Made by a program: the position numbers and the translations under genes
The notes under the pieces: generated by a model
Database searches by the model: none
Seen by the model: only the letters and a program-made list of their open reading frames with translations
Told to the model about the DNA's origin: nothing
NCBI GenBank assembly: GCA_044342325.1
Contig: JBIIPZ010000061.1
Coordinates: 1 to 13,097, forward strand
Reading direction: 5' to 3'
Length of the DNA stretch: 13,097 nt
Source: Terrimicrobiaceae bacterium
GTDB lineage: Bacteria; Verrucomicrobiota; Verrucomicrobiia; Chthoniobacterales; Terrimicrobiaceae
In this document: in pieces, positions 1 to 13,097 of the stretch
Layout: every line of letters starts with the position of its first letter
How positions within the stretch are numbered: the first letter of the stretch is position 1

Positions 1-93
1 CACAACCGTCTCGGCCGCGCCCTCTATGGCAAACTCAAGGTTTACGCCGGCGCTGAGCACCCGCACACCGCACAGAACCCACAAGCAGCCTGA
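1..93 (+). CDS. rplM: 50S ribosomal protein L13, C-terminal part (truncated by window start)
   Basis: Manual frame-1 translation [37 protein letters not shown]-x-EHPH-x-AQ-x-P is the L13 C-terminal signature. It lies 8 nt upstream of rpsI, the conserved rplM-rpsI order. Confidence 0.96.
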
Positions 94-101
94 TTTTTCG
101 T

Positions 102-497
102 ATGAGCAAAGCAGAACCCATCCAAACTACAGGCCGCCGCAAGACCTCCGTGGCAAGCATCCGTCTCCAGCCCGGCTCCGGAGCGATCAAAGTCAACGGC
201 CGTGACTTCACCGACTACTTCCCAAGCCTCTCGGTTCAAAACCAGATTCTCCGCCCGCTGGAAATCGCCAACGCTGTCCACACCTACGACCTCACCGTCA
301 AGACCGTCGGCGGCGGCGTCAACGGCCAAGCCGGCGCCCTGCGCCTCGCCATCAGCCGCGCGCTCATCGAGATCGATGAGGCCCTGCGCATCCCGCTCAA
401 ACAGGAAGGCCTCCTCACACGCGACCCTCGCATGAAGGAACGCAAAAAGCCCGGCCAGCCCGGCGCCCGCAAACGCTTCCAGTTCTCGAAGCGTTAA
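102..497 (+). CDS. rpsI: 30S ribosomal protein S9
   Basis: 131 aa with TGRRKTSVA, GGGVNGQAGALRLAISRAL, LLTRDPRMKERKKPG and terminal ARKRFQFSKR, all S9 motifs. Confidence 0.99.
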   Translation: MSKAEPIQTTGRRKTSVASIRLQPGSGAIKVNGRDFTDYFPSLSVQNQILRPLEIANAVHTYDLTVKTVGGGVNGQAGALRLAISRALIEIDEALRIPLKQEGLLTRDPRMKERKKPGQPGARKRFQFSKR

Positions 498-515
498 TCC
501 GCTTTCCCTTCCAAC

Positions 516-549
516 AAAAAAGCCGCCTCGCGAGAGGCGGCTTTTTTTT
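516..549. terminator. Bidirectional intrinsic terminator
   Basis: A6-GCCGCCTC-gcga-GAGGCGGC-T8: perfect 8-bp stem, GNRA loop, T-tracts on both strands, between convergent rpsI and the EpsI-like gene. Confidence 0.93.
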
Positions 550-562
550 CGTCAACGAGTCA

Positions 563-1282
563 CTACGACTCCGGCATGATTTGCGGAGCAAGTTCGGCAA
601 TGGCGGCGTCAACACGGGCACTCGTTTGCTGAAGATTCTTTCCGCCGGGAACAAAGCCCTCGAGCACCGGCGCGTTCACGATGACATAGGCCCAGCGGTG
701 GTTTGTATTGTGCAGTAGCATGTCGAGATTCGTCTTGAGCACTCTCACAAAATGGTGCGGCGTCGTGGCGTGCTTCCCGATGAACCAGTAGCAGAAGATC
801 GATGTCAGATCGCGCTGCACGCCGTTGTTAAGCGTGACTGGCCTGACAACTGCAAGCTTCATGACTTCCAAAACTCTTCCATCGGCCAGCTTCACCGGCA
901 CGACTTCGCCGGATTTAATAGTCCACCCCTGCGCGGGCAGGCAGACCTCAGGACGGTGAATGCTGCGCTTTTCCGCTCCGGCTAAAACGATCTGGCAGTG
1001 AATGTCGCTACCCAGGCCGTCGGAGTAGATTTTTTTTGCGAATTCGGTGTCCGCCGGAAGGATGACCTTCTCCGCCTCGGAGATAGGCTGGTCGCTGCCC
1101 CACAAGCCAACCAATGTGCTAGGCAACTCCATCACGACACCCGGCTCGGATTTTGTCGCCGGTGCAGTGCCCCACAGGCAAGCAACGATAGTGAAGGCGG
1201 CGAGTGCCACAATCACAACGCCGCGCCAGATCGGAATCGAGCCGCTCTCAGCCGACGAAACAGAAGTGGTTGGCGCTTGCAT
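563..1282 (-). CDS. Exosortase-associated EpsI-family (DUF3485-like) protein
   Basis: N-terminal hydrophobic anchor (GVVIVALAAFTIVACLW), then the motif SIHRPEVCLPAQGW and YWF typical of EpsI-family proteins. ATG at 1282 preferred over TTG at 1318, giving 239 aa. Confidence 0.8.
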   Translation of the reverse strand: MQAPTTSVSSAESGSIPIWRGVVIVALAAFTIVACLWGTAPATKSEPGVVMELPSTLVGLWGSDQPISEAEKVILPADTEFAKKIYSDGLGSDIHCQIVLAGAEKRSIHRPEVCLPAQGWTIKSGEVVPVKLADGRVLEVMKLAVVRPVTLNNGVQRDLTSIFCYWFIGKHATTPHHFVRVLKTNLDMLLHNTNHRWAYVIVNAPVLEGFVPGGKNLQQTSARVDAAIAELAPQIMPES

Positions 1283-1289
1283 GCCCGTT

Positions 1290-1318
1290 GCTTTACACCG
1301 AGTGCACCGCTTGGGCAA
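1290..1318 (-). promoter_or_regulatory. Putative sigma70-type promoter of the EpsI-like gene
   Basis: Minus strand TTGCCC-17 nt-TAAAGC, 7 nt before the ATG at 1282. The -10 is imperfect and there is no SD. Confidence 0.35.
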
Positions 1319-1400
1319 CCTGTGAAGTTTTTTTCAGCAAATGGAAAGAAAACGATGAATCCTTGCACGCAACTCGAATTGATAGAAGGATGCCCTCGTT

Positions 1401-1895
1401 ATGGTGACAGGAAATTCCCCCCAATGGTATCTCCGCAAACATGCGGACAGAGAAATTTTTGGCCCGGTGGCTTTTGAGCAAATCCGCGAATGGGCGATGT
1501 CCGCCCAGATTCATCCGCAGGATGCCGTTTCAAATGATGGCCGCACTTGGAACAAGGCGCCGATGCTTGAGGAACTGCACATGGACTGGCTTGTGGAAGT
1601 CCCCGGGCAGCCGCTCTACGGCCCCACCACAGCGGGAACCCTGCTGGAATTCCTGAACATCGGAGAAATCTCGGCAGAAACAAAAATCCTAAATTGCTGC
1701 TCGGGTGAAAAAATGCGGCTGGGAGACGCCTCCTTTTTCCCGAGCCCCACTGCATACGGTGAGGACAGCAACCTGAAGGAAAGCCTCCAAAACCGGATTC
1801 TGGAACTCGAAACAGAGCTCCTGCACAAACAGACAGAACTCAACTTCGCATTGGATAAGATCACCCGTCTGGAGCGGCGCTTGCAGGACTTGTAG
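1401..1895 (+). CDS. Tandem GYF_2 (DUF4339)-like domain protein with C-terminal coiled coil
   Basis: Two repeats of W-x(7-9)-[FY]GP-x4-[IL]-x2-[WF]: WYLRKHADREIFGPVAFEQIREW and WLVEVPGQPLYGPTTAGTLLEF. Leu-heptad tail LKESLQNRILELETELL...LERRLQDL. AAGGA at 1386-1390. Confidence 0.7.
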   Translation: MVTGNSPQWYLRKHADREIFGPVAFEQIREWAMSAQIHPQDAVSNDGRTWNKAPMLEELHMDWLVEVPGQPLYGPTTAGTLLEFLNIGEISAETKILNCCSGEKMRLGDASFFPSPTAYGEDSNLKESLQNRILELETELLHKQTELNFALDKITRLERRLQDL

Positions 1896-1947
1896 TCCAC
1901 CAACGCCTGAGACTCCGGCTCCGCACGGAAATGTGACAGACTGTTCA

Positions 1948-1975
1948 TTGCGCGGACTACTCCCTTTGCTACAGT
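1948..1975 (+). promoter_or_regulatory. Putative sigma70-type promoter of the protease operon
   Basis: TTGCGC (1948-1953), 16 nt, TACAGT (1970-1975) with extended TG. ATG follows 7 nt later and there is no SD. Confidence 0.5.
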
Positions 1976-1982
1976 CGCCGCA

Positions 1983-3428
1983 ATGTCCCGTTTTCCTCTG
2001 ATTGCCCTCGCCTTCCTCTGCTCGGTCGCCGCGCTGAATGCCGTGGAAATTTCGAAAAGCCTCGTCCGGATCGAGGCGACTTCGCAAGAACCGAACTACA
2101 AAACCCCATGGAGCCCCGGGGATGTTTCCTCGGGAGTAGGCGCGGGATTTGTTGTTGATGGCAAACGCATCATGACGAACGCCCATGTCGTAAGTAACGC
2201 GCGCTTCCTCACCGTCTCTAAGGAAGGGGATCCGAACCCGTATCTCGCGAAAGTCCTCCACATCGCCCACGACTGCGACCTCGCCCTACTGAGCGTGGAA
2301 AACCCGGCATTCTTCAAAAGCACCGCCCCTCTGGAATTCGGCGGCATACCAGATATTGAATCCGTCGTGTCCGCCTATGGATACCCGGTCGGCGGCACAC
2401 GCCTGTCCGTGACGCGTGGCATTGTGTCACGCATCGACTTCCAGCCCTACTCGCACTCCGGCATGGATTCCCACCTCGCCATACAGATCGATGCAGCCAT
2501 CAATCCCGGCAACAGCGGTGGACCAGTGATGCAGAATAGCAAGGTCGTAGGCGTCGCATTTCAAGGCTACAGCGGAGATGTCGCACAGAATGTGGGCTAT
2601 ATGATTCCCACACCGGTGATCCAGCGGTTTTTGAAGGATGTGCAGGATGGCCACTACGACCACTATGTGGATTTGGCCCTGACCTACCGCAACCTCTTCA
2701 ATCCCGCCTCCCGCCGTGCGCTGGGCCTCGAAGATGAGACCACCGGCGTCCAAGTGTGCAGCGTTTACAGCGGAGGCGCAGCCGATGGCATCCTAAAGCC
2801 TGGTGATGTGATTTTGAAAATCGACGGGCACACCGTGTCGAGCGATGGCACCATTCCGCTGGAGAACGAGGCCGTGCCATTGGACGAGGTGGTGGAGAGG
2901 AAATTCAAAGGCGACAAGGTCGAACTCGAAATCCTCCGCAAGGGGAAACCCATGTCTGTCACCGTGCAACTCAATGAACCCTGGCCATTCAAACTCCAAA
3001 GCAACCTCTACGACGAGAAGCCCCGCTTCGTCGTCGCAGGCGGCCTGGTCTTCCAGCCGGTGGATCAGAATTTCATGGATGCGCACGACCCGTCCGACCA
3101 GCGCTTGAACTACATTTTCGACTACTTCATTGCCGATCAATTGCACACCAACCGCCCGGAGATCGTTGTTCTCAGCAACATCCTGCCCGATCCCGTGAAC
3201 GCCTACGCCGAGGAATTCCGCTACTCCGTCGTAGACGAAGTCAACGGCCGCCGCATCAAAAGCATCGAAGACATCGCCTCAGCCTTCGACGAGCAGGCCG
3301 ACTGCTATGTCATCAAATTCGCTGGCGGAGGACGCCCACTTGTCCTGGAGCGCAAAGCCATAGAAGAGGCCCGCCCGCGCATTCGCGAGCGCTACGATGT
3401 CACGGCGGAGAAAAACCTCAAAAAATGA
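1983..3428 (+). CDS. Exported trypsin-like serine protease, HtrA/Deg family (Deg2/Deg9-like, protease plus two PDZ-type domains)
   Basis: Signal peptide MSRFPLIALAFLCSVAALNA. Intact triad: TNAHV (H68), DCDLA (D99), DAAINPGNSGGP (S178). PDZ motif LKPGDVILKIDG and second-PDZ motif GGLVFQP. Confidence 0.93.
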   Translation: MSRFPLIALAFLCSVAALNAVEISKSLVRIEATSQEPNYKTPWSPGDVSSGVGAGFVVDGKRIMTNAHVVSNARFLTVSKEGDPNPYLAKVLHIAHDCDLALLSVENPAFFKSTAPLEFGGIPDIESVVSAYGYPVGGTRLSVTRGIVSRIDFQPYSHSGMDSHLAIQIDAAINPGNSGGPVMQNSKVVGVAFQGYSGDVAQNVGYMIPTPVIQRFLKDVQDGHYDHYVDLALTYRNLFNPASRRALGLEDETTGVQVCSVYSGGAADGILKPGDVILKIDGHTVSSDGTIPLENEAVPLDEVVERKFKGDKVELEILRKGKPMSVTVQLNEPWPFKLQSNLYDEKPRFVVAGGLVFQPVDQNFMDAHDPSDQRLNYIFDYFIADQLHTNRPEIVVLSNILPDPVNAYAEEFRYSVVDEVNGRRIKSIEDIASAFDEQADCYVIKFAGGGRPLVLERKAIEEARPRIRERYDVTAEKNLKK

Positions 3429-4915
3429 AATCCATCCACCTCCAGCGAGCCGCCTGGCTTGCCCTCGTCCTTTTACTGGCCATTCAGTCGGCACCTGCGG
3501 ATGACGATAACTCCGCGTCGGCATCTGCCTCGAAATCCCTGCTACGCGTGAACTCGACGAATCAGGTTTACGAGTTTTTCCAACCATGGATTAAAAAGCC
3601 CCCCTTCAGCAGGCGCGGAATCGGCGCACTGATTGATGGCGGTCGCATTCTGGTCACAGCCGAACTCGTGGCGAACTCGACATTCATCGAGCTTGAAAAA
3701 CCCGCCACAGCCGAAAAATCCACCGCCACTGTGGAGCTCGTCGATTACGACTGTAACCTCGCCGTCCTACGCCCCGCAGATTCCGCCTTCCTCGCCGACA
3801 TGCAACCCCTCACTTTGAACGGGCCCTTGAAGGTCGGCGACGAGGCCACCATCCTCCAACTTGAGCCAAATGGAGACATCGCTCAAACCCTCGGCCGCAT
3901 CACTTCCATCAGCGTCGCCGGTTATCCCTCCGAGTCGGGATCCCTCCTCCTCTTAAAACTCGGAGCACCCATCCAACAAAGGGATGGCAGCTTCACCCTG
4001 CCCGCAGTTCGGGATGGCCGCCTCATCGGCATGGTCATGCGCTACGACGCCCGAAACCAATCTGCAGACATCGTTCCAACCGCTGTGATCCGCCATTTTC
4101 TGGCTGAAGTCGATTCACCAACCTACCAAGGCTTCGCCCGCCTCGGCGTGGCCTTCGCCCCGCTCCGCGATCCGCAACTCCGCCGCTACATCGGCCTCAA
4201 AGAACCAGGAGGCATCTATGTCGCCGATATCACCCCGCGAGGCTCAGCCGATGCCGCAGGGATCAAAAAAGGCGATGTGATCCTGGCGGTGGATGGACTT
4301 CCTCTCGACCAAGACGGCAACTACGAGGACCCGGACTACGGCCGCATCCTCTTCAGCCATCTCACCAACACCATCAAACACCCCGGCGCCGTCCTCCCGC
4401 TCAAAATCCTCCGCGACGGCAAGACACTCGAGATTCCCGTCACCATGCAGGTCGCAAATCGAGACCACGCCATCAGCGAGACCCACCTCTCCGACGAGGC
4501 CCCGAAATATGTCATCTTAGGCGGCCTCGTTTTCATCGAACTCTCGCGCCCCTACCTCAAGGAATGGGGAAGCAAATGGGCATCCACCGCACCGCAGCGC
4601 CTGGTTTACTATGATGCCTTCCAAAACGAACTCCCCGCCGACCGTGGCCGCATCATCATCCTCTCCCAAGTCCTCCCCACCCCCGATACCATCGGCTACG
4701 AAGACCTCGAGAATATCGTCGTCACCAAAGTGAACGGCCAGCCGATCAAAAGCCTCGCCGACTTGTCCGAAGCCGCAAAAAAACCGGTCGATGGATTCCA
4801 TAAAATCGAGTTTGAAGAAGACCCGAAACTCCTCTTTCTCGACGCCAATTCAATTCAATCCAATGCCGACGAACTGAAAAAACATTACTCACTCCCCGCA
4901 TTGGAACGCCTTTGA
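3425..4915 (+). CDS. Exported Deg/HtrA paralogue with degenerate catalytic triad (probable pseudoprotease) and PDZ domains
   Basis: Collinear with the upstream protease (SKSLLRVNST vs SKSLVRIEAT; IKKGDVILAVDG; GGLVFIEL), but has VTAELV for TNAHV, DCNLA for DCDLA and RDGSFTLP for PGNSGGP. It has its own signal peptide and an ATGA overlap with the upstream stop. Confidence 0.88.
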   Translation: MKSIHLQRAAWLALVLLLAIQSAPADDDNSASASASKSLLRVNSTNQVYEFFQPWIKKPPFSRRGIGALIDGGRILVTAELVANSTFIELEKPATAEKSTATVELVDYDCNLAVLRPADSAFLADMQPLTLNGPLKVGDEATILQLEPNGDIAQTLGRITSISVAGYPSESGSLLLLKLGAPIQQRDGSFTLPAVRDGRLIGMVMRYDARNQSADIVPTAVIRHFLAEVDSPTYQGFARLGVAFAPLRDPQLRRYIGLKEPGGIYVADITPRGSADAAGIKKGDVILAVDGLPLDQDGNYEDPDYGRILFSHLTNTIKHPGAVLPLKILRDGKTLEIPVTMQVANRDHAISETHLSDEAPKYVILGGLVFIELSRPYLKEWGSKWASTAPQRLVYYDAFQNELPADRGRIIILSQVLPTPDTIGYEDLENIVVTKVNGQPIKSLADLSEAAKKPVDGFHKIEFEEDPKLLFLDANSIQSNADELKKHYSLPALERL

Positions 4916-4921
4916 TCAACC

Positions 4922-5785
4922 ATGAAAACCGCACTCACCCTACTCCTCCTCGCCGCACTCACCCTGCACGCCGACGAATCGCTGCAGACATTTCCAAGCT
5001 GCACACTCGTGGAGGCAGATTGGGCGGATGGCGACAGCTTCCCGGTTAAGCTTCCCGATGGACGCCAGATTACTGCCCGCCTCTACGGCGCGGACTGCAT
5101 CGAGTGGCATGTGAACGACGAATCCCTCGCCCGCCGCCTCCGCGCCCAGCGGCGCTATTTCGGCATCGCGGACACCGATGCCACCTCATCGATGAAAACC
5201 GCCCGCGATTTCGGAAAGCAAGCCGCCCTCCGCACCCGCGAACTCCTCGCCAAACCCTTCACCGTCCACACCGCATTCGCCGGAGCCCGGGGCAACGGAG
5301 AAAAAGAACGCGCCTACGCCTTTGTCACCACAGCCGAAGGTAAAGACCTCGCAACCATCCTCGTGGAAGATGGGCTGGCACGCGCCTTCGGCGTCACCCG
5401 CCAACTTCCAGACGGCACATCCGGCAACGAATACCGGGACGCACTCGCCGACCTCGAACTCACTGCCGCCGCCGCCAAAAAAGGCATCTGGGCCGTCACC
5501 GACTGGACCCACATTGCAAAAGACCGCGCCGAGGAACGCCGCGAATCCGCCGATCTCCAAACAGTCCTGAAAGACTCCCAATCCACCACCGCCATCAACC
5601 CGAATACCGCCACAGCCGAGGAACTCGAATCCCTCCCCGGTATCGGCAAAAAACTCGCCGAACGCATCATAGAGGCCCGAACCACAAAACCCCTCACCTC
5701 AATCGACGACCTTCTCGCCATCAAAGGCATCACCCCAAAACTCATCGAATCCCTCACGCCAAAAATCCAGTTCACCACCCCATAA
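4922..5785 (+). CDS. Exported thermonuclease (SNase-like) fused to a ComEA-type helix-hairpin-helix DNA-binding domain
   Basis: Signal peptide MKTALTLLLLAALTLHA. SNase motifs DGDSF, RLYGADCIE, RAYAFV, LVEDGLA and KKGIW. C-terminal INPNTATAEELESLPGIGKKLAERII...LLAIKGI is a ComEA HhH pair. Confidence 0.88.
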   Translation: MKTALTLLLLAALTLHADESLQTFPSCTLVEADWADGDSFPVKLPDGRQITARLYGADCIEWHVNDESLARRLRAQRRYFGIADTDATSSMKTARDFGKQAALRTRELLAKPFTVHTAFAGARGNGEKERAYAFVTTAEGKDLATILVEDGLARAFGVTRQLPDGTSGNEYRDALADLELTAAAAKKGIWAVTDWTHIAKDRAEERRESADLQTVLKDSQSTTAINPNTATAEELESLPGIGKKLAERIIEARTTKPLTSIDDLLAIKGITPKLIESLTPKIQFTTP

Positions 5786-5981
5786 CGCCCCGCGTGTCAG
5801 CGCGTATCGTCGATGGGAGGACCATCGTCCCACATGGCCCATATTTCAGCCGCGCAGCGGCGTCTGTCTTCGCGTGGCATCGAAAAAAATCCCCGCACTC
5901 CGTGTCAAAATTTGGGCCATGCCGGAGGATGGCCCTCCAAAATTCACAAATCGTCAACCACCCCATTTTCCTCACGGGCCC

Positions 5982-6009
5982 TTGCGTTTCATCAATGCTG
6001 CCGTAGTCT
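5982..6009 (+). promoter_or_regulatory. Putative sigma70-type promoter of the leader/Cys-rich peptide unit
   Basis: TTGCGT (5982-5987), 16 nt, TAGTCT (6004-6009), 6 nt before GTG 6016. No SD. Confidence 0.5.
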
Positions 6010-6015
6010 GAATTC

Positions 6016-6354
6016 GTGAATTGGCATCTGCGCGCAGGAATGGTTTGTATGGCTCTTATCGCCGTATCGGTGCTGGGCATTGCATTGCCGACCGAGATGC
6101 TTTCGAGTCCAGTCGTGGAGGTCGCGTCCTGTTGCTGCCCCGGGCTTCATTCCCCACCGGCGGCGAGCGCGGCGTCCGCATCCTCCTGTGCGTGCCATGT
6201 CTGCCCGGTTGCGCCCCATTTGCTTGCTGTCGTTGCGATGCAGGATTTCAAGCTCTCGCCGCCGCTGGTCGCGCATTGCTGGACCAACCGCGACGAATCC
6301 GCTCCGGGCTTCTGCCCCGAGCCGGCCACACCACCACCGCGCACGGCAGCCTGA
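6016..6354 (+). CDS. Cys-rich exported leader protein with C-terminal Pro-rich motif (CutF/CruR/DUF2946-like putative arrest peptide)
   Basis: 112 aa: signal/TM segment (MNWHLRAGMVCMALIAVSVLGIA), CCC and CACHVC clusters, about 38-aa linker, terminal PEPATPPPRTAA. Alternative in-frame ATGs at 6040 and 6049. Confidence 0.7.
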   Translation: MNWHLRAGMVCMALIAVSVLGIALPTEMLSSPVVEVASCCCPGLHSPPAASAASASSCACHVCPVAPHLLAVVAMQDFKLSPPLVAHCWTNRDESAPGFCPEPATPPPRTAA

Positions 6355-6418
6355 CTTTGCGCCGGGGCCTGATTCTTTTTCAGGCCGTCACTTCTCAAAA
6401 ATTCCATTCAGAAAGGAA
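6343..6418 (+). promoter_or_regulatory. Putative translational switch: alternative stems and SD of the downstream gene
   Basis: TCAGGCC(GT) 6380-6388 can pair with GGCCTGA 6366-6372 or with ACGG-cag-CCTGA 6343-6354. TTCTTTTT 6373-6380 can pair (2 G-U) with GAAAGGAA 6411-6418, which contains the SD. Confidence 0.5.
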
Positions 6419-6422
6419 AATT

Positions 6423-6578
6423 ATGAAATCATTCATTCTCGCCATCGCTCTGGCCTGCGCCGCAGTGGTTGGTTCTGTTCAAGCCGCCGGGACTTCGTGC
6501 CCGAAATGCTGCAAGGACAAGGACTGCGCCACCTGCTGCAAAGGCAAGTGCTCCGAGTGCAAACAGTGCAATAAGTAA
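6423..6578 (+). CDS. Small exported Cys-rich, metallothionein-like peptide (51 aa)
   Basis: MKSFILAIALACAAVVGSVQA|AGTSCPKCCKDKDCATCCKGKCSECKQCNK. Clear SD (GAAAGGA 6411-6417), Sec signal with VQA cleavage site, 9 Cys in 30 mature residues, downstream terminator. Confidence 0.85.
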   Translation: MKSFILAIALACAAVVGSVQAAGTSCPKCCKDKDCATCCKGKCSECKQCNK

Positions 6579-6603
6579 CGCGCTCGAAATGGCATAAATC
6601 GCC

Positions 6604-6641
6604 AACGCGGCTCTCCGAAAGGGGGGCCGCGTTTATTTTTT
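6604..6641 (+). terminator. Intrinsic terminator
   Basis: AACGCGGCTCTCC-gaaa-GGGGGGCCGCGTT (13 bp including 2 G-U, GNRA loop) followed by TATTTTTT. Confidence 0.88.
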
Positions 6642-6671
6642 GGCCGATGCACAAGATCGCGAGCCGACCAT

Positions 6672-6701
6672 TCGACAAAGAGGCAGGCGTTGCGGTATTG
6701 T
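6672..6701 (+). promoter_or_regulatory. Putative sigma70-type promoter of dnaE
   Basis: TCGACA (6672-6677), 18 nt, TATTGT (6696-6701), 6 nt before ATG 6708. No SD. Confidence 0.5.
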
Positions 6702-6707
6702 CCCGGG

Positions 6708-9700
6708 ATGTCATTCGTTCACCTGCATTGCCACTCCGAGTTTTCCCTTCTGGACGGAGCTGTGCGGTTGGATGAATTGGTAAAAAAAGCGGCGGGATTC
6801 GGGATGCCGGCCGTGGCCGTGACGGATCACGGCAACCTGCATGCGGCGGTGCCGTTTTATCAGCAAGCTGAGAAGAAAGGGATCAAGCCGATCATCGGAT
6901 GCGAGATGTATGTCGCACCGGGCTCGATGACCGATAAGAGCGGCTCCTCTGCGAAGGATGCCGCATTTCATCTCACGCTGTTGGCGACAAACGACGAAGG
7001 TTACCGGAATCTCGTGAAGCTCTCCACGGCTGGGTATCTCGAGGGCTTTTACTACAAACCCCGCGTAGACAGAGAGCGTTTGGCCGCGCATTCGAAAGGC
7101 ATTATCGCCCTCAGTGGCTGCCTGAAGGGCGAGGTCGCGACGCTATTGCAATCGGGACGCTTCGACGAGGCGCAGGCGACGGCGGCGGCCTATCGGGAAA
7201 TTTTCGGCGCAGAGAACTACTTCATCGAACTCCACGATTTCGGCCTTGATGCGCAGCGGCGAATCAATCCCGACCTGGTGAAAATCGCGCGCAACCTCGA
7301 TCTCGGCTTGGTTGCCGCGAACGATGTCCACTTTCTGGAGAAGTCGCACCACGAAGCCCACGATGTGCTCATCTGCATCGGCACCGCATCGAATGTTGTG
7401 GATGAAAGGCGCATGCGCTACAGCCCCGAACTGTATTTCAAATCCCCCGAGGAGATGCGCGCCCTTTTCGCCGAGCTTCCCGAGGCGTGCGACAACACCC
7501 TACGCATTGCCGAGAGATGTGATTTCAAGATGGAATTCGGCAAACCGAAATACCCGAATTTCGACTCGCCCGACACGCGCAGCCGCGAGCAATACCTGCG
7601 CGATCTCTGCCATGAGGGTCTCCGCAAGCGGTTTGGCGAACGGGTGGATACCGATGCCGAGCTGAACAAGCGCCTCGATTACGAACTCTCGGTGATCGAG
7701 AAAACAGGATTCATCAGCTACTTTTTGATCGTCTGGGATTTCATCCGCCATGCGAAAGACAGCGGTATTCCCGTGGGCCCGGGGCGCGGCTCGGCGGCAG
7801 GCTCCCTCATCGCGTATGTGCTGGGAATCACGGATATCGACCCTCTCCGCTATGGACTGATTTTTGAAAGGTTCCTGAACCCCGAGCGCGTCAGCCCGCC
7901 GGATATCGATGTGGACTTCTGCATGGAACGCCGAGGCGAAGTCATCGAGTATGTGCGCCAAAAATACGGCGAACGAGCGGTGTCGCAGATCGTCACCTTC
8001 GGCACGCTGGGCGCGAAGAGCGTGATCCGCGATGTCGCCCGCGTGCTGGGCTGGAGCTACTCGGACGGCGACCGCGTGGCAAAGATGATCCCGAACGAGC
8101 TGAATATCGACCTCGAGAAGGCCCGCGAAAAGAACCCCGAACTCGACACAGCCATCGAAAACGAAGCGCCCGTTCGCCAACTCTGGGACTACGCCACCGT
8201 GCTCGAGGGCCTGAGCCGCAATACCGGCATCCACGCCGCCGGCGTCGTCATCGGCGATCGTCCGCTCGATGAATTCATTCCCCTCTGCCGAGGCAAGGAA
8301 AACGAAGTCGTCACGCAATACGCCATGGGCCCGCTCACCGATCTGGGAATGCTCAAGATGGACTTCCTCGGCCTGCGCACGCTCACGATCATGCAGGAGG
8401 CGGTGCGTCTGATCCACGCGAAGGTGCCGGACTTTAACATCGACCTCATCCCCAGCGACGACAAAACCTCCTTTGATATCTACAACCGGGGCGAAACACT
8501 CGGCGTCTTCCAGATGGAAAGCGGCGGCATCACGAATTGCTGCAAGCGCTTTGATGTCGGCTGCATCGAGGACATCATCGCCATCGGCGCGCTTTATCGG
8601 CCAGGCCCGATGCAGTTCATCGACGACTACATCGAGCGCAAAAAGGGCATCAAAAAGGTGGAATACCTGCATCCGCTCCTCGAAAAGGTCTGCTCCGAGA
8701 CGCACGGCATCATTGTCTATCAAGAGCAGGTGCAGATGGCTGCGAGCGTGCTTGCGGGCTACTCGCTCGGCGAGGCCGATTTGCTCCGCCGCGCGATGGG
8801 CAAGAAGGATGCCGAGAAGATGGAAAAGGAGCGCAAACGCTTCGTCGAAGGCTGCGGCACACACAACAACATTCCTCCCAAGGTCGCCGATGCCATCTTC
8901 GGCTTCATCGAAAAATTCGCGCAATACGGCTTCAACAAATCCCACAGCGCCGCCTATGGCTGGATTTCCTACCAGACCGCCTACCTCAAGGCCCACTTCC
9001 CGCGTGAGTTCATGTCCGCCATGCTCACCTTCGACGCCAACGATACCGACCGCCTGGCCGTTGTCATCGCCGAGTGCCGCCGCATGGAGATTCCCGTGCT
9101 GCCGCCAGACATCAACGCCAGTGCGCTGAAGTTCGCACCCGAGACCGACGGCCCAGGAATTCGCTTCGGGCTGGCATCCATAAAAAATGTAGGTGCGGGC
9201 GCGATGGAGTCCGCCATTGCCGAGAGGGAAAAAAACGGCGCCTTCCGCACGCTGGAGAATTTCTGCTCTCGCCTCGATTCCCGCACGGTGAACCGCAAAA
9301 TTCTCGAGAGCCTTGTGAAATGCGGCGCCTTCGACTGCCTCGACAAAAACCGAGCCGCACTCTTCGCCGAGATCGAATCCTCCATGGCCGCCGCCGCCTC
9401 ACTCCAGCGCGACCGCGCGAGCGGACAGTTCTCACTCTTTGGAGACACCCCACTCACACCGCCGAAAAAATCCTCCAGTGCAGCAAGGATCGAGCCTTGG
9501 AGCAATTTGGACACCCTCAAGCACGAGAAGGAACTCCTCGGCTACTATGTGAGCGGACACCCCCTCGACAGCTACGCAGGGAATTTTGACTCGGGAAAAT
9601 ACAACACCATAGCCCAAGCCCGCGAAGCTACCGAGCCCGGCACATTCAAGCTCGCGGGACTGATCATGTCCGTCGAGAAGCGCTTTTCCAAAAAGGACGG

Positions 9701-10115
9701 GAAGCCCTTCGGCATCCTCATCCTCGAAGACTTCACCGGCTCGCTGGAAATCACCGCCTGGGATGAAACCTTCTCCAAAAACGCCGCGCTTTTCGTCGCC
9801 GGCACAGCGGTGTCCATCAACACACGCATAACCCGCCGCGACGAGGCCATCCGCGCCACAGCGGGAGCCACAGTCGCACTAAAAGAAAAAACCTCCGTCC
9901 GCCCCGTCCGACTCCGCCTCGCCCACGAGCGCCTTGATGAAGCCGCCCTGCAAAAAATCCTCGCCGCCGTGAAAGCCAATCCCGGTCCTCGTCCCCTCAT
10001 CCTCGAGTTCGTGCGCCCCAACGGCCGCTCACTCGACATGCCCGCCGGCGAAGAATTCGACATCGGCGACGAACGCGCCTTGATCTCCGCCGTGAACGGA
10101 CTGGTTGTTACCTGA
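6708..10115 (+). CDS. dnaE: DNA polymerase III alpha subunit (DnaE1 type)
   Basis: MSFVHLHCHSEFSLLDG PHP start; GPGRGSAAGS; PDIDVDF; GIHAAG; KMDFLGL; ALYRPGP; YGFNKSH; clamp motif QFSLF; OB fold and C-terminal domain. 1135 aa from ATG 6708. Confidence 0.99.
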   Translation: MSFVHLHCHSEFSLLDGAVRLDELVKKAAGFGMPAVAVTDHGNLHAAVPFYQQAEKKGIKPIIGCEMYVAPGSMTDKSGSSAKDAAFHLTLLATNDEGYRNLVKLSTAGYLEGFYYKPRVDRERLAAHSKGIIALSGCLKGEVATLLQSGRFDEAQATAAAYREIFGAENYFIELHDFGLDAQRRINPDLVKIARNLDLGLVAANDVHFLEKSHHEAHDVLICIGTASNVVDERRMRYSPELYFKSPEEMRALFAELPEACDNTLRIAERCDFKMEFGKPKYPNFDSPDTRSREQYLRDLCHEGLRKRFGERVDTDAELNKRLDYELSVIEKTGFISYFLIVWDFIRHAKDSGIPVGPGRGSAAGSLIAYVLGITDIDPLRYGLIFERFLNPERVSPPDIDVDFCMERRGEVIEYVRQKYGERAVSQIVTFGTLGAKSVIRDVARVLGWSYSDGDRVAKMIPNELNIDLEKAREKNPELDTAIENEAPVRQLWDYATVLEGLSRNTGIHAAGVVIGDRPLDEFIPLCRGKENEVVTQYAMGPLTDLGMLKMDFLGLRTLTIMQEAVRLIHAKVPDFNIDLIPSDDKTSFDIYNRGETLGVFQMESGGITNCCKRFDVGCIEDIIAIGALYRPGPMQFIDDYIERKKGIKKVEYLHPLLEKVCSETHGIIVYQEQVQMAASVLAGYSLGEADLLRRAMGKKDAEKMEKERKRFVEGCGTHNNIPPKVADAIFGFIEKFAQYGFNKSHSAAYGWISYQTAYLKAHFPREFMSAMLTFDANDTDRLAVVIAECRRMEIPVLPPDINASALKFAPETDGPGIRFGLASIKNVGAGAMESAIAEREKNGAFRTLENFCSRLDSRTVNRKILESLVKCGAFDCLDKNRAALFAEIESSMAAAASLQRDRASGQFSLFGDTPLTPPKKSSSAARIEPWSNLDTLKHEKELLGYYVSGHPLDSYAGNFDSGKYNTIAQAREATEPGTFKLAGLIMSVEKRFSKKDGKPFGILILEDFTGSLEITAWDETFSKNAALFVAGTAVSINTRITRRDEAIRATAGATVALKEKTSVRPVRLRLAHERLDEAALQKILAAVKANPGPRPLILEFVRPNGRSLDMPAGEEFDIGDERALISAVNGLVVT

Positions 10116-10129
10116 ACAGGCATCAGGCG

Positions 10130-10303
10130 ATGTCGCAGCACATGACTTGGCAGCAGCGTCTCCGGAACGACATCAGCTCACCTTTCTTGTGCTTTTTCGT
10201 GCTGCAGGCAGCTTTCCTGCTCTTCTGTGTATTACACCCTGTGGCTGAGATCGGAATGTTCGATACCATTCACCAGATTGGTTCCTGGTTTATCCTTTTC
10301 TGA
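10130..10303 (+). CDS. Small hydrophobic ORF (57 aa), hypothetical membrane peptide or gene remnant
   Basis: Manual translation MSQHMTWQQRLRNDISSPFLCFFVLQAAFLLFCVLHPVAEIGMFDTIHQIGSWFILF*. It starts 14 nt after the dnaE stop and is below the ORF-track cut-off. Confidence 0.4.
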   Translation: MSQHMTWQQRLRNDISSPFLCFFVLQAAFLLFCVLHPVAEIGMFDTIHQIGSWFILF

Positions 10304-10443
10304 GGGGTCAGGAATTAATTATTGACCCGATCTTGTGATTGAACCTACCTCGCGCCATACCGAGACTTGCAGGCGTGAAACAAGAAAATCATGTCAATAA
10401 TTTATGCCCGACCCTTTTTCATCAATATTTTATGCCTGACCCC
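10304..10443. repeat. REP/MITE-like element: three 23-nt repeats, one inverted relative to two tandem copies
   Basis: GGGGTCAGGAATTAATTATTGAC (10304-10326). Its reverse complement matches GTCAATAATTTATGCCCGACCCT (10393-10415) and ATCAATATTTTATGCCTGACCCC (10421-10443) at 19/23 each. Confidence 0.8.
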
Positions 10444-10470
10444 TTTTATTCCCACGCGCAAATATGTCTC

Positions 10471-10509
10471 AAGAAAGGCCCTCGCCCACCGCAAGCAGCG
10501 GATGGGCGA
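10471..10509 (-). terminator. Probable intrinsic terminator of the minus-strand sugar operon
   Basis: TCGCCCA-CCGC-aagca-GCGG-a-TGGGCGA hairpin (10482-10509) 14 nt past the oxidoreductase stop. The minus-strand tail TTTCTT is short and offset from the stem. Confidence 0.55.
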
Positions 10510-10523
10510 TATGAGGGTTCGAA

Positions 10524-11636
10524 CTAAAGACGGCCTTTGATCAATCCGAGCGGAAGCGGTTCGGGCTGCGGCGGGTTGGATGCTATGGAAACGTGCTTCT
10601 TGAGGTCTGAAGACTTTTCAAAGGCATGCATGACTTCCAGCACGTGGTAAGCGAGCGCCCCGCTGCTGCGGTGGCTGCTCTTTCTGCTGTCATCAAGGAT
10701 CGCGTAGGCCATGTCAGCGGCTCCGATGCTGCGGCTGTTCTCGCTATACGGATGGCTCAGAGCCTGATTACGCCACTCGCCGGTAGTCTGTGTCCAAATC
10801 TCCAACGGACCGCCGAAGGTATTCGGATCCGGCACCTTCAACGAGCCTTCGCTGCCATAAAGCTCGATCGGGCTGTGCCCGTGGCCGTGCACATCGAATG
10901 AGATTGTCACCGTCACAATGGCTCCCGAATGAAACACGAGCGTGCCTGAGGAGTGGGTCGGAACGGAAACGGGGAGCATCTTTCCGAACTGCTCCTTGCA
11001 GGTGGCGATTCGTTCCTCGAAGGCGCGCGTGGTCACACCACTGACCTCCTTCACCGGTCCCAGAAGATGAACCAGTGCTGTGATGTAATAAGGGCCCATG
11101 TCGAACATGGGGCCGCCTCCAACCTCGTAGAAAAATGCGGGGTTCGGGTGCCAAGATTCCGGGCCGCGGGACATCATGAACGCCGTGCCGCTGAAAACTT
11201 TTCCGATCCATCCGTCGTCCACCATTTTCCGTGCGGTCTGGAGTCCGGCTCCGAGAAAGGTGTCCGGTGCGCAGCCCACGAGCAGCCCCTTTTCCCCGGC
11301 AAGGTCGATCACTTTTTTGGCATCCTCGAGATGGACCGCCAGCGGTTTTTCGCAATGCACATGCTTGCCGGCATTGAGCGCTGCAAGGCTGACCTCAGCA
11401 TGGACTGCAGGGATGGTGAGGTTGACGACCAAATCCACGTCGGGATTCGCCAACAACTCGTCCACCGTCTGGGCCACGCAGCCGTTTTCTGCGGCCTTGG
11501 CCTTGGCGGCTTCTGGGTTGAGATCGGCGCAGGCGACCACTTCGAGGACTTCGAAAAGTTTAGCCCCGTTGAAGTAGGCTTGGGAAATGTTTCCGCAACC
11601 GATAATGCCGACGCGGACTTTGGATTTGTTTTGCAT
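10524..11636 (-). CDS. Gfo/Idh/MocA family NAD(P)-dependent oxidoreductase
   Basis: Rossmann motif VGIIGCGNIS, GKHVHCEKPLA, GGGPMFDMGPYY. 370 aa. SD-like AAGGA upstream. Confidence 0.94.
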   Translation of the reverse strand: MQNKSKVRVGIIGCGNISQAYFNGAKLFEVLEVVACADLNPEAAKAKAAENGCVAQTVDELLANPDVDLVVNLTIPAVHAEVSLAALNAGKHVHCEKPLAVHLEDAKKVIDLAGEKGLLVGCAPDTFLGAGLQTARKMVDDGWIGKVFSGTAFMMSRGPESWHPNPAFFYEVGGGPMFDMGPYYITALVHLLGPVKEVSGVTTRAFEERIATCKEQFGKMLPVSVPTHSSGTLVFHSGAIVTVTISFDVHGHGHSPIELYGSEGSLKVPDPNTFGGPLEIWTQTTGEWRNQALSHPYSENSRSIGAADMAYAILDDSRKSSHRSSGALAYHVLEVMHAFEKSSDLKKHVSIASNPPQPEPLPLGLIKGRL

Positions 11637-11645
11637 GGTTTGTCC

Positions 11646-12461
11646 TTATTTGTTGCTGCGGGCGATGCCGGTGCTCGTGAGGTAATGGTAGCTTTCCTGA
11701 ATAGCCTTCACCATGTCGCCGGTGTAGCTGTCGAGTTCGACGGCGATGTATTTCGCGTAGGTTGCGGCTTTCGAGGCTGCTTGCAGGTCCACCTGGCCGG
11801 TGCCTGCCGGAAGGAAGGGTGAGGAATTGCTGACCATGATTTTGCCGCTCTCCGTCTCGGCCTCAGTGAAGGTGTCGGAGGCGCTGATGACTCCATCCTT
11901 GAAATGGAGCACCTTGCCGCGCGGGCCGATCTCATTGATGAAGGCGACGGGATCGAGCCCGGCCTTCGCGACCCAAAAGACGTCCGCTTCCCATAGGACG
12001 GTATCCGGCGTGTTCTCCAGAAAAATCCGGTAGCCTGGCGTTCCGTCGACATCGATCAGGTCCCAGTCGTGGTTATGATACCCGACCTGGAGTCCATGGG
12101 CGGCGGCGTTTGCAGCCGCTTCGCAATAAAGTTCCGCAATGGCCTTGACCGCATCAGACGATGAGAAATTCGCCTTAAAATCAGGCGGACAGCCGGTGAT
12201 GATCGCTTCGTGCCCGAGAAGCAGTGCCTCCTCGATCACAGCATTCTTTTGGTCGCCCACCGGCAGAGCGCCGTGGCAGGTTGGCGCCTTGAGGCCGAGT
12301 TCTTGGAATAGCTTTGCGGCCTTCGCTGCGGATGAGCCTGGATACCCCGCCGGTTCGACGCAGCCGAATCCCATGGCGGCAATGGCACGGATCGTGCCTT
12401 CGTAGTCGGCGGCAGCTTGGTCGCGGACGCTGTAAAGTTGAACGGTAATTTGTGGAATCAT
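11646..12461 (-). CDS. Sugar phosphate isomerase/epimerase, xylose-isomerase-like TIM barrel (AP_endonuc_2)
   Basis: VQLYSVRD, GFGCVE, GYHNH, EADVFW, LHFKD and VELD motifs. 9 nt from the oxidoreductase, so probably co-transcribed. Confidence 0.92.
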   Translation of the reverse strand: MIPQITVQLYSVRDQAAADYEGTIRAIAAMGFGCVEPAGYPGSSAAKAAKLFQELGLKAPTCHGALPVGDQKNAVIEEALLLGHEAIITGCPPDFKANFSSSDAVKAIAELYCEAAANAAAHGLQVGYHNHDWDLIDVDGTPGYRIFLENTPDTVLWEADVFWVAKAGLDPVAFINEIGPRGKVLHFKDGVISASDTFTEAETESGKIMVSNSSPFLPAGTGQVDLQAASKAATYAKYIAVELDSYTGDMVKAIQESYHYLTSTGIARSNK

Positions 12462-12558
12462 GCTGGGTTGTATTGTAGGAAGTTGATGAAAACAGGTCTG
12501 GCTTGGTGCGAGATCCTCACAATATCAGAATCTGACCGGGAGAAAATTGACAAAACCT

Positions 12559-13097
12559 ATGATTAATGGTGCTGGAGTGAAGACGGCCTTGGAGAGCGTG
12601 GGCCACTATATCAGCGGGCCTGGCGGGGCTGACAGGCCTTTGGTCGTTCCCGAGAATTTTCTGCTGTTCGAGCTGATCACCGAAGGGGCGGTTTATTCGC
12701 CTGGCGGAAACGATCTCCATGGCGTGGGAGCTGTATTCGCCCACAACACCGGTCAATCCACTGTCAGTCGAACGCCGGGGGATGGACACTACGCCTGTAT
12801 GACCGTGCGCTACAGTTTGGATCGGCTGTCGCAGCTGTTTGCCTGGCCGCGTGTTTTCCAGTGGGCGGTCGTAAGCCAGGCGTTGCGGTTTTCGGAGGAG
12901 ATTCTCTTCGCATTTCACCATACCGATCATGATCACGGAGTGCTTGGCGAACTGATCTGGAGCCAATTCCGTTTCCGGTTGGAGGAATTCCAGCGGAGCG
13001 TAAAGCACCGGTCGATTCCTCCGCTCGTGGCGAACGTGATGAGCCACATGGACCGCCACTACGCCGAACCGCTCGGCGTGGAGGATCTGGCCGCGCG
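12559..13097 (+). CDS. AraC family transcriptional regulator (3' end outside window)
   Basis: Open frame absent from the ORF track: MINGAGVKTALESVGHYISG...LFELITEGAVY...IPPLVANVMSHMDRHYAEPLGVEDLAA. The end matches the start of an AraC HTH domain, and it is divergent from the sugar operon. The start could be GTG 12577. Confidence 0.85.
   Translation, partial: MINGAGVKTALESVGHYISGPGGADRPLVVPENFLLFELITEGAVYSPGGNDLHGVGAVFAHNTGQSTVSRTPGDGHYACMTVRYSLDRLSQLFAWPRVFQWAVVSQALRFSEEILFAFHHTDHDHGVLGELIWSQFRFRLEEFQRSVKHRSIPPLVANVMSHMDRHYAEPLGVEDLAA

Follow-up and report, generated by a model that had tools for sequence, protein, structure and literature searches.

Metallothioneins are recognized operationally by their low molecular weight, a cysteine content of about 30% arranged in CC, CxxC or CxC, few or no aromatic residues or histidines, and metal-thiolate clusters; in the vertebrate metallothionein beta-domain, some 30 residues rich in lysine and devoid of aromatics and histidine hold an M3(SCys)9 or Cu(I)6 cluster with nine cysteines. 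To our knowledge, only a few metallothioneins have been described from bacteria, all of them cytoplasmic. Here we analyze a stretch of 13,097 nucleotides from a Terrimicrobiaceae bacterium of the Verrucomicrobiota (assembly GCA_044342325.1, contig JBIIPZ010000061.1, positions 1 to 13,097; hereafter the window), in which a gene at 6423-6578 on the forward strand (+) encodes a lysine-rich peptide with nine cysteines and a signal peptide, and an upstream open reading frame (ORF), 6016-6354 (+), encodes a putative sensor leader.

On the side of the peptide, the closest bacterial precedents are SmtA/BmtA and MymT, which are cytoplasmic, carry no signal peptide and are controlled by transcription factors, and among which MymT, at about 5 kDa, has a predicted capacity of up to six Cu(I) (PMC7558416). 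An earlier reading of the window from its letters alone (the original prediction) had called known bacterial metallothioneins cytoplasmic; this holds for SmtA/BmtA and MymT but not for every bacterial copper-thiolate protein, because Csp1, a copper-storage protein of about 120 amino acids, is exported by Tat as a pre-folded four-helix bundle and forms a tetramer with 13 Cu(I) per monomer (PMC7558416). For one bacterial metallothionein, PmtA of Pseudomonas aeruginosa, a location at the cell surface has been reported (PMC11237414).

On the side of the leader, the precedents are CutF of Rhodobacter capsulatus, the CutF-like proteins, CruR and CopL. CutF-like proteins were delimited by a set of rules: fewer than 150 amino acids, an N-terminal signal peptide, PP among the 15 C-terminal residues, a Cys/His metal site, and a neighbour on the same strand, mostly less than 100 nucleotides downstream (PMC9973294). 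The survey built on these rules was dominated by Pseudomonadota and Bacteroidota, and its members with a cysteine motif mostly head copper-homeostasis genes (PMC9973294). In CutF itself the arrest motif is P109-EPEGPPPRL-118, whose PPP is required for copper-induced stalling (bioRxiv 10.1101/2025.02.05.636593), and CruR-type leaders, in a mechanism involving Rho access, repress uptake genes when copper is sensed (PMC9426467). Against this background, we tentatively propose, with confidence slightly short of even, that the two genes of the window form a self-contained cassette, with a CutF-like sensor leader that would control a periplasmic metallothionein-like thiolate peptide, probably one that binds Cu(I).

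A conserved peptide gene paired with a putative leader

The peptide gene is real, conserved and under selection. It encodes a 51-residue precursor made of a Sec-type signal peptide and a mature part, the last 30 residues, which contains nine cysteines and seven lysines, has no F, W, Y or H, and reads as two CxxCCKxK repeats followed by CxxCxxC; translation is identical to what the original prediction had described. A six-frame search recovered a full-length orthologue in 19 of the 24 other species genomes of the genus (E-values 1.6e-28 to 4.4e-10); two of the remaining five gave no match and three gave chance-level matches only (E 0.2-0.8), four of these five genomes being 61-89% complete and one 98% complete. 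In a second draw the gene was present in 12 of 13 genus genomes. All 20 aligned genus sequences share the nine cysteines, four of the lysines, the MK start and the alanine at -1 (M1, K2 and A21), TGC and TGT alternate synonymously at six of the nine cysteine codons, and for the mature part the ratio of nonsynonymous to synonymous substitution rates (dN/dS), computable for 34 of 36 pairs, has a median of 0.22, the median dS being about 1. The gene is single-copy in its own genome, where a search for paralogues gave one chance match (E 1.65).

The locus is also present in RNA libraries. Contigs of three metatranscriptomic libraries from different studies cover 6241-6585 at about 93% likeness (X1, which joins the 3' end of the leader with the peptide gene), 6391-6562 with one mismatch (X3) and 6346-6468 (X5); the runs, which contained only about 5% of the sampled words, served solely for contig coverage and not for habitat.

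By inspection, the precursor begins as a substrate of Sec and signal peptidase I would, with MK at its start, a core of some 16 hydrophobic residues, and V-Q-A ahead of the cleavage site; cleavage after VQA (residue 21) obeys the -3/-1 rule. It has neither a twin-arginine motif nor a conserved lipobox, the cysteine at residue 12 not being conserved, and the peptide is predicted to be exported through this Sec signal. The same frame is also open as a 185-residue reading (6021-6578), which we rejected as accidental: in the orthologues the part 5' of 6423 can be anything between 4 and 170 codons long, and it matches no Pfam family, so 6423 is taken as the start.

The peptide gene does not stand alone, the original prediction having overlooked the conserved leader ORF. 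All 20 genus loci and all 35 loci of the species-genome collection have this ORF 5' of the peptide gene, and it also precedes distant peptides of nine or eleven cysteines in three other genera (genomes G055, G072 and G027). The features of the gene pair, in order along the window, are:

5982-6009 (+): promoter-like element read from the sequence, a -35 box TTGCGT (5982-5987), a 16-nucleotide spacer and a -10 box TAGTCT (6004-6009), with a putative function
6016-6354 (+): leader or sensor ORF, 112 amino acids from a GTG start, TGA stop at 6352-6354
Leader residues 9-25 (+): hydrophobic N-terminal signal, a basic residue followed by a 17-residue hydrophobic stretch, by inspection
6130-6138 (+): CCC, leader residues 39-41, invariant in the aligned leaders
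6187-6207 (+): CxCxxCP, leader residues 58-64, its CxC invariant in the aligned leaders
6316-6342 (+): leader tail PEPATPPPR, with three more codons before the TGA
6366-6386 (+): intercistronic stem-loop, 7-bp stem GGCCUGA/UCAGGCC and 7-nucleotide loop, starting 11 nucleotides past the leader stop codon
6411-6417 (+): Shine-Dalgarno-like GAAAGGA, 5 nucleotides 5' of the peptide ATG; a purine-rich GAAAGGA-like element is kept in orthologues
6423-6485 (+): signal peptide, residues 1-21, with MK n-region, hydrophobic core and VQA cleavage motif
6486-6578 (+): mature 30-residue peptide and stop codon, nine invariant cysteines as CxxCC / CxxCC / CxxCxxC, lysine-rich
6604-6643 (+): strong intrinsic terminator preceding dnaE, with a GC-rich stem of 13 bp, a GAAA loop and a T-run (hairpin with T-run also placed at 6604-6633)

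An alternative start of the leader at ATG 6040 gives the 101-residue form of database gene calls; the C-terminal end of the ORF is PEPATPPPRTAA. The body of the leader evolves fast, with 18-31% identity outside the closest relatives, and its fixed features are the N-terminal basic and hydrophobic segment, CCC, CxC (mostly CxCxxCP) and PxxPPP(R/K). CCC, CxC and PxxPPP are invariant in the 16 aligned leaders, an alignment that excludes three genus loci with CCH or HCC in place of CCC, and PxxPPPR or PxxPPPK lies 1-5 residues before the stop both in these 16 and in all 35 loci. The 150 nucleotides 5' of the peptide gene that are conserved between genomes with different gene surroundings are the 3' end of this ORF; they were also considered as an Rfam family, a possibility we rejected (best match E 0.2, below every gathering score).

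The intergenic region is equally regular. Nearly all loci place the leader stop 60-73 nucleotides from the peptide ATG, the stem starts 10-13 nucleotides past the leader stop in the loci inspected by eye, and the stem-loop is supported by compensatory double changes at five of its six pairs (RNAalifold, 21 loci) and predicted in single-sequence folds as well; it matches no Rfam family. A hairpin with a T-run follows the peptide stop codon in 20 of 20 orthologues. At the other end, a TTGC(A/G/C)T ... TA(G)nnT pair recurs, by eye, equally far from the leader start in most of 15 loci with differing contexts; a consensus scan did not pick up the element. Because its -10 box ends 6 nucleotides before the leader GTG, the mRNA would be near-leaderless, and a near-leaderless mRNA with a non-AUG start would be unusual if true. 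Outside the pair, the neighbours are unrelated between genomes, in at least eight contexts. A promoter-like element and a terminator of its own around the gene pair suggest a mobile cassette of about 660 bp.

The peptide belongs to a nine-cysteine family that is rare, unnamed and so far known only from Verrucomicrobiota. Profile searches gave 27 matches among 5.8 billion clustered proteins and 32 among 1.84 billion representatives, all of 30-111 amino acids, without a Pfam domain, named "hypothetical" if at all, and labelled Terrimicrobiaceae or Verrucomicrobiaceae. Close relatives occur in 35 species genomes (Terrimicrobiaceae, Spartobacteria, Verrucomicrobia, Chthoniobacter, Luteolibacter and two unclassified), all of them metagenome-assembled genomes of uncultured organisms. 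A draw of 401 Verrucomicrobiota genomes, whose first-look candidates were scored in part so that members may be missed, gave at least eight matches: five true nine-cysteine peptides, one seven-cysteine variant and two false ones. Exactly nine cysteines are found in 29 of 30 family representatives and eleven in the other; the layout is mostly three times CxxCC in distant members, the third repeat being CxxCxxC, CxxCC or CxxxCC, and the cysteine core is free of F, W, Y and H in 29 of 30. That the number stays at nine as the layout of the last triad shifts suggests that the count itself matters. Candidates in G059, G306, G648 and G555 were discarded, there being no Cys-rich ORF or no peptide at the matched site.

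Two observations lie at the edge of this family. A 251-nucleotide contig of run X3 matches only 6507-6545, the conserved cysteine core, with unrelated sequence on its 5' side, and probably derives from another family member in the same library. Genome G645, from another family of the class, carries a secreted seven-cysteine relative (C11, about 849515-849661) with CxxCxxCxxCC...CxC and a long Lys/Glu-rich tail, which may represent another type of exported Cys/Lys peptide. HSP20 genes are located some 2-3 kb from this peptide and, in G010, about 1 kb from the cassette, possibly by chance.

Comparison with copper-sensing leaders and metallothioneins

The leader resembles CutF, CutF-like proteins, CruR and CopL in its size of about 110 amino acids, its N-terminal signal, its cysteine motif and the exported target downstream. 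To the published CutF-like rules it conforms in length, signal, terminal PPP, a cysteine motif with predicted metal binding and a short intergenic region that holds a stem-loop, and it shares with CutF in particular the PEPxxPPPR tail, a short but specific match. This architecture, of the CutF/CruR class, together with the PEPxxPPPR match, is why we read the leader as a sensor and not as an enzyme or a structural partner. There are nevertheless differences: CutF/DUF2946 proteins have CxxxC or CxxC where the leader has CCC and CxCxxCP; the hairpin of CutF hides the Shine-Dalgarno sequence (SD), as the strict CutF mechanism demands, whereas the stem-loop of the window contains neither SD nor anti-SD and is not predicted to shield the SD; and the described targets of CutF-like leaders are an oxidase, an efflux pump, a chaperone or a TonB receptor, here replaced by a nine-cysteine mini-peptide. 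No such target turned up in the literature searched, which did not cover the neighbour list of PMC9973294; the word metallothionein occurs nowhere in the main text of that survey.

The leader has no Pfam family, and a six-frame search of the genome with DUF2946 (E ≤ 0.1) did not match its locus, so that homology with CutF rests on architecture and one short motif. Its database relatives number 19, all named hypothetical; in the ESM Atlas it scores 0.96 to unnamed clusters of about 110 residues and 0.95 to DUF6660, a family that is not mentioned in the literature searched.

The mature peptide has the operational composition of a metallothionein (30 residues, nine cysteines and no F, W, Y or H) and is like the vertebrate beta-domain in size, cysteine number, richness in lysine and lack of aromatics and histidine. 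It is unlike that domain in having no detectable sequence relation to it, CxxCC instead of CxC, a Sec signal, a bacterial origin and the form of a stand-alone 30-mer. With SmtA/BmtA and MymT it shares the character of a small Cys-rich bacterial protein, its metal binding being predicted; in contrast to SmtA/BmtA it has a signal peptide and an arrest-peptide-like leader, and it does not match the SmtA model of Pfam. The same absence of a match to an SmtA/BmtA-type model separates it from PmtA, a protein of the SmtA/BmtA type. Csp1 shows that Gram-negative bacteria can export a Cu(I) store lined with cysteines, yet the peptide is no Csp1, with its 30 residues and a Sec-type signal lacking an RR motif. 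An exported or periplasmic bacterial metallothionein-like peptide is not described in the literature searched.

Other identity searches with the peptide gave little. Pfam returned zero families at E ≤ 0.01 and NCBIfam a single sub-threshold, signal-peptide-like match; the best ESM Atlas score was 0.85, to unnamed clusters, which serves as a lead only.

Weighing the proposed mechanism

The envelope in which the peptide would act appears poor in disulfide chemistry and in known copper defenses. Protein families were searched in the bacterium's own genome (G000) and in four to five near-complete genus genomes (G008, G046, G183, G211 and G259). DsbA (PF01323) was found in none of six genomes, Thioredoxin_4 (PF13462) and VKOR in none of five, and DsbB in one of five, within a 466-codon open frame of G259. 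Consistent with this, predicted exported proteins show an even cysteine count in 44-49% of cases (four stringencies, n=71-492 Cys-containing proteins) versus 50% for cytoplasmic ones, in a survey of one genome with a crude home-made signal-peptide predictor and no positive-control genome; their cysteine content is lower overall. Dutton et al. reportedly concluded in 2008 that no preference for even cysteine numbers is the pattern of bacteria without structural disulfides. Together, the apparent lack of Dsb-type enzymes and of an even-cysteine bias shifts the balance from a disulfide-knotted fold towards a thiolate state. That disulfide-forming enzymes seem to be absent from an aerobic genus raises a separate question of interest, that of thiol handling in its envelope. 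As for copper, periplasmic defense usually relies on multicopper oxidase, CusF-type chaperones and efflux pumps. Neither multicopper oxidase nor CusF was detected in five genus genomes, which would leave the niche of a periplasmic copper buffer vacant, a circumstantial argument; subunit I of heme-copper oxidases (COX1) is encoded in all five, with 2-4 genes each.

We hypothesize that the cassette of about 660 bp (promoter, near-leaderless 112-residue exported Cys-rich leader ending in PPP, stem-loop, peptide gene and terminator) moves as a unit and that its leader acts as a co-translational sensor of the CutF/CruR type. If a thiophilic metal, in all likelihood copper, bound the leader while its Cys-rich part was passing into the periplasm, this would alter the length of a ribosome pause on PPPR, and this pause, by way of the stem-loop at a fixed distance past the stop, would set the output of the downstream peptide. 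The pause might be passed on through Rho access as in CruR, through RNA processing or through re-initiation. The peptide would then be exported by Sec, cleaved after VQA and kept reduced in an envelope without detectable disulfide-forming machinery, where its nine thiolates, in three triads, could enclose several soft metal ions, forming a cluster like that of a metallothionein, with a stoichiometry, by analogy with the vertebrate beta-domain, of about three divalent ions or up to six Cu(I). In this form it may buffer or detoxify periplasmic metal where multicopper oxidase and CusF go undetected.

The boldest version of this proposal would make the peptide the first periplasmic bacterial metallothionein, a Sec-exported 30-mer with a beta-domain-like copper or soft-metal cluster, set translationally by a new CCC-type arrest-peptide sensor that is either unrelated to DUF2946 or diverged beyond recognition, and serving as the main periplasmic copper defense of aerobic freshwater Verrucomicrobia that lack Dsb, multicopper oxidase and CusF. 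We regard this version as conceivable but rather doubtful.

Several points weigh against even the more cautious form of the cassette hypothesis. None of 30 family members matched a metallothionein Pfam model, the prokaryotic SmtA type included (E ≤ 10), although HMMER filters may drop weak matches; "metallothionein-like" is therefore a matter of composition and not of family membership. A sequence search of the PDB gave nothing at E ≤ 10, the AlphaFold2 model of the peptide is of moderate quality (predicted local distance difference test score, pLDDT, of 66), with a short helical turn on each cysteine triad, and Foldseek found no fold match for it in the PDB. In the same way the leader does not match DUF2946 (PF11162) at E ≤ 10, nor do six other partner ORFs at E ≤ 1. 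Our claim is accordingly that the two products work like, and not that they are members of, the metallothionein family or DUF2946. The pairing has exceptions: the distant member G060 has no such leader, and in G663 a different PP-tailed Cys/His ORF lies 234 nucleotides 5' of the nine-cysteine peptide gene. Copper or other metal genes are nowhere a conserved neighbour, and the loci compared contain no metal operon. The likeness to CutF also breaks down at the SD, which lies 25 nucleotides 3' of the stem and whose predicted unpaired probability, in 17 loci, does not change when the 5' arm is taken away. During a pause on PPP the ribosome would stand about 27 nucleotides from the stem, which only a terminating ribosome would abut. 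The RNA contigs document presence in RNA libraries and are neither proof of transcription nor a measure of expression levels or transcript ends, and the even-cysteine survey has the narrow base given above. Because the organism is aerobic, an exported or released peptide could oxidize spontaneously. Finally, we infer that the peptide is exported, stays reduced and binds metal, as we infer which metal this is and by what mechanism, and in which direction, regulation works.

A model in which the stem-loop shields the SD was rejected, as the folds show no SD sequestration and no change upon removal of the 5' arm. The upstream ORF of G663 (C51) encodes 137 amino acids; its N-terminus resembles a signal, its body carries the motifs CPACH and HCPCC, and PP lies close to the C-terminal end. 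It matches no Pfam model, and no DUF2946 at E ≤ 1, and it conforms to the published CutF-like rules. Its difference from the usual leader suggests that different leader types were recruited to one peptide family.

The exported metal-thiolate peptide proposed in the original prediction is thus partly supported, by the constant nine cysteines, the failure to find DsbA and VKOR, and the CutF-like leader. If the proposal is true, an exported thiolate "sponge" peptide would be a new component of periplasmic copper defense, and co-translational metal sensors of the CutF/CruR type, which have been studied for only a few years, would have a wider range of known targets. The small size of the self-contained cassette, about 660 bp, makes the regulatory hypothesis directly testable in a surrogate host, and the 30-mer is within reach of peptide synthesis.

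The peptide might instead serve copper supply, as a periplasmic or secreted scavenger, store or chaperone for the heme-copper oxidases, with a leader that shuts its production off at high copper as CruR would. In favour of this, each genome has 2-4 COX1 genes, the labels of the RNA runs point to lake water (in small shares only), and near-universal presence in the genus looks housekeeping-like. CruR-type leaders repress uptake genes upon sensing copper (PMC9426467), and a stem-loop that leaves the SD uncovered agrees less well with the CutF type than with a mechanism based on Rho or on termination. On the other hand, the arrest motif is that of CutF (PPPR) and not the RAPP of CruR, and no Sco, PCuAC or transporter gene is linked. 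Moreover, thiolate clusters release Cu(I) slowly. We consider copper supply unlikely.

We give a similarly low probability to a disulfide-knotted cationic secreted peptide, a bacteriocin, defensin-like molecule or signal, for which the upstream membrane-anchored Cys-rich protein would be an immunity, folding or docking partner. The peptide is indeed small, rich in lysine and cysteine, equipped with a Sec-type signal and similar in composition to peptides of the hepcidin or defensin type; two family members give weak sub-threshold Pfam matches to the scorpion short-toxin model (best E 0.036), and two-gene modules are typical of toxin-immunity pairs. An odd cysteine number held constant at nine is hard to reconcile with such a fold, however, and so are exported proteins without an even-cysteine bias and genomes in most of which DsbA, DsbB and VKOR were not found. 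Nor does the locus look like that of a bacteriocin or of a ribosomally synthesized and post-translationally modified peptide (RiPP): no maturase, protease or dedicated transporter is adjacent, in agreement with the original prediction, which had seen no modification enzyme there, and the neighbours are housekeeping genes that differ between genomes. Bacteriocins have a patchy distribution, whereas this single-copy gene occurs in almost all species of the genus, and a partner that evolves fast save for CCC, CxC and a PPP tail at a fixed distance from a hairpin fits a regulatory leader better than an immunity protein.

More remote is a periplasmic thiol buffer: the peptide would be exported as a sacrificial reductant, or to scavenge oxidants and electrophiles, in place of exported glutathione or Dsb-type redox control. 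An oxygen-respiring cell whose envelope lacks the classical Dsb machinery could use a peptide with 30% cysteine in this way, but a bulk reductant needs neither a strict count of nine nor fixed spacing, no recycling reductase is linked, and the cysteine motifs and arrest tail of the leader point, by analogy, to metal sensing. Least probable of all is a MerP/MerT-like relay in which a membrane-anchored CCC/CxC protein and the soluble peptide would pass a soft metal (Hg, Cd, As or Cu) to the inner membrane or across it: obligate co-inheritance (35 of 35 loci) and vicinal cysteines in two products both predicted to face the periplasm would suit it, yet the partner has a single hydrophobic segment and no channel-like helices, a body diverging to 18-31% identity outside the closest kin and a PPP tail at fixed hairpin spacing, and no reductase or regulator is linked.

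Neighbouring genes

The outer neighbours of the cassette, listed across genomes, include dnaE; BacA with ABC-F; Mfd-SurA with shikimate dehydrogenase; AbiE with OEP; PIN; IS200; a chromate transporter; DUF4185 with TetR; HSP20; LytB; and transhydrogenase. A functional link of the peptide to dnaE, or to the nuclease-like gene on its other side, was considered and rejected, because synteny with them is limited to the closest relatives.

Elsewhere in the window, DUF3485 (EpsI-like, exosortase-associated) and GYF_2-domain proteins, at 563-1318 (-) and 1401-1895 (+), adjoin rpsI. Two overlapping DegP/HtrA-like genes follow in tandem, 1983-3428 and 3425-4915 (+), the first with trypsin and PDZ domains and the second with PDZ only and no protease-domain match; from its sequence, the second may be a degenerate or non-catalytic paralogue. 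The gene at 4922-5785 (+) encodes a staphylococcal-nuclease-like domain fused to a ComEA-type helix-hairpin-helix DNA-binding domain, and the segment 5300-5750 shows a strong strand bias, with GC skew reaching -0.37 and AT skew +0.43.

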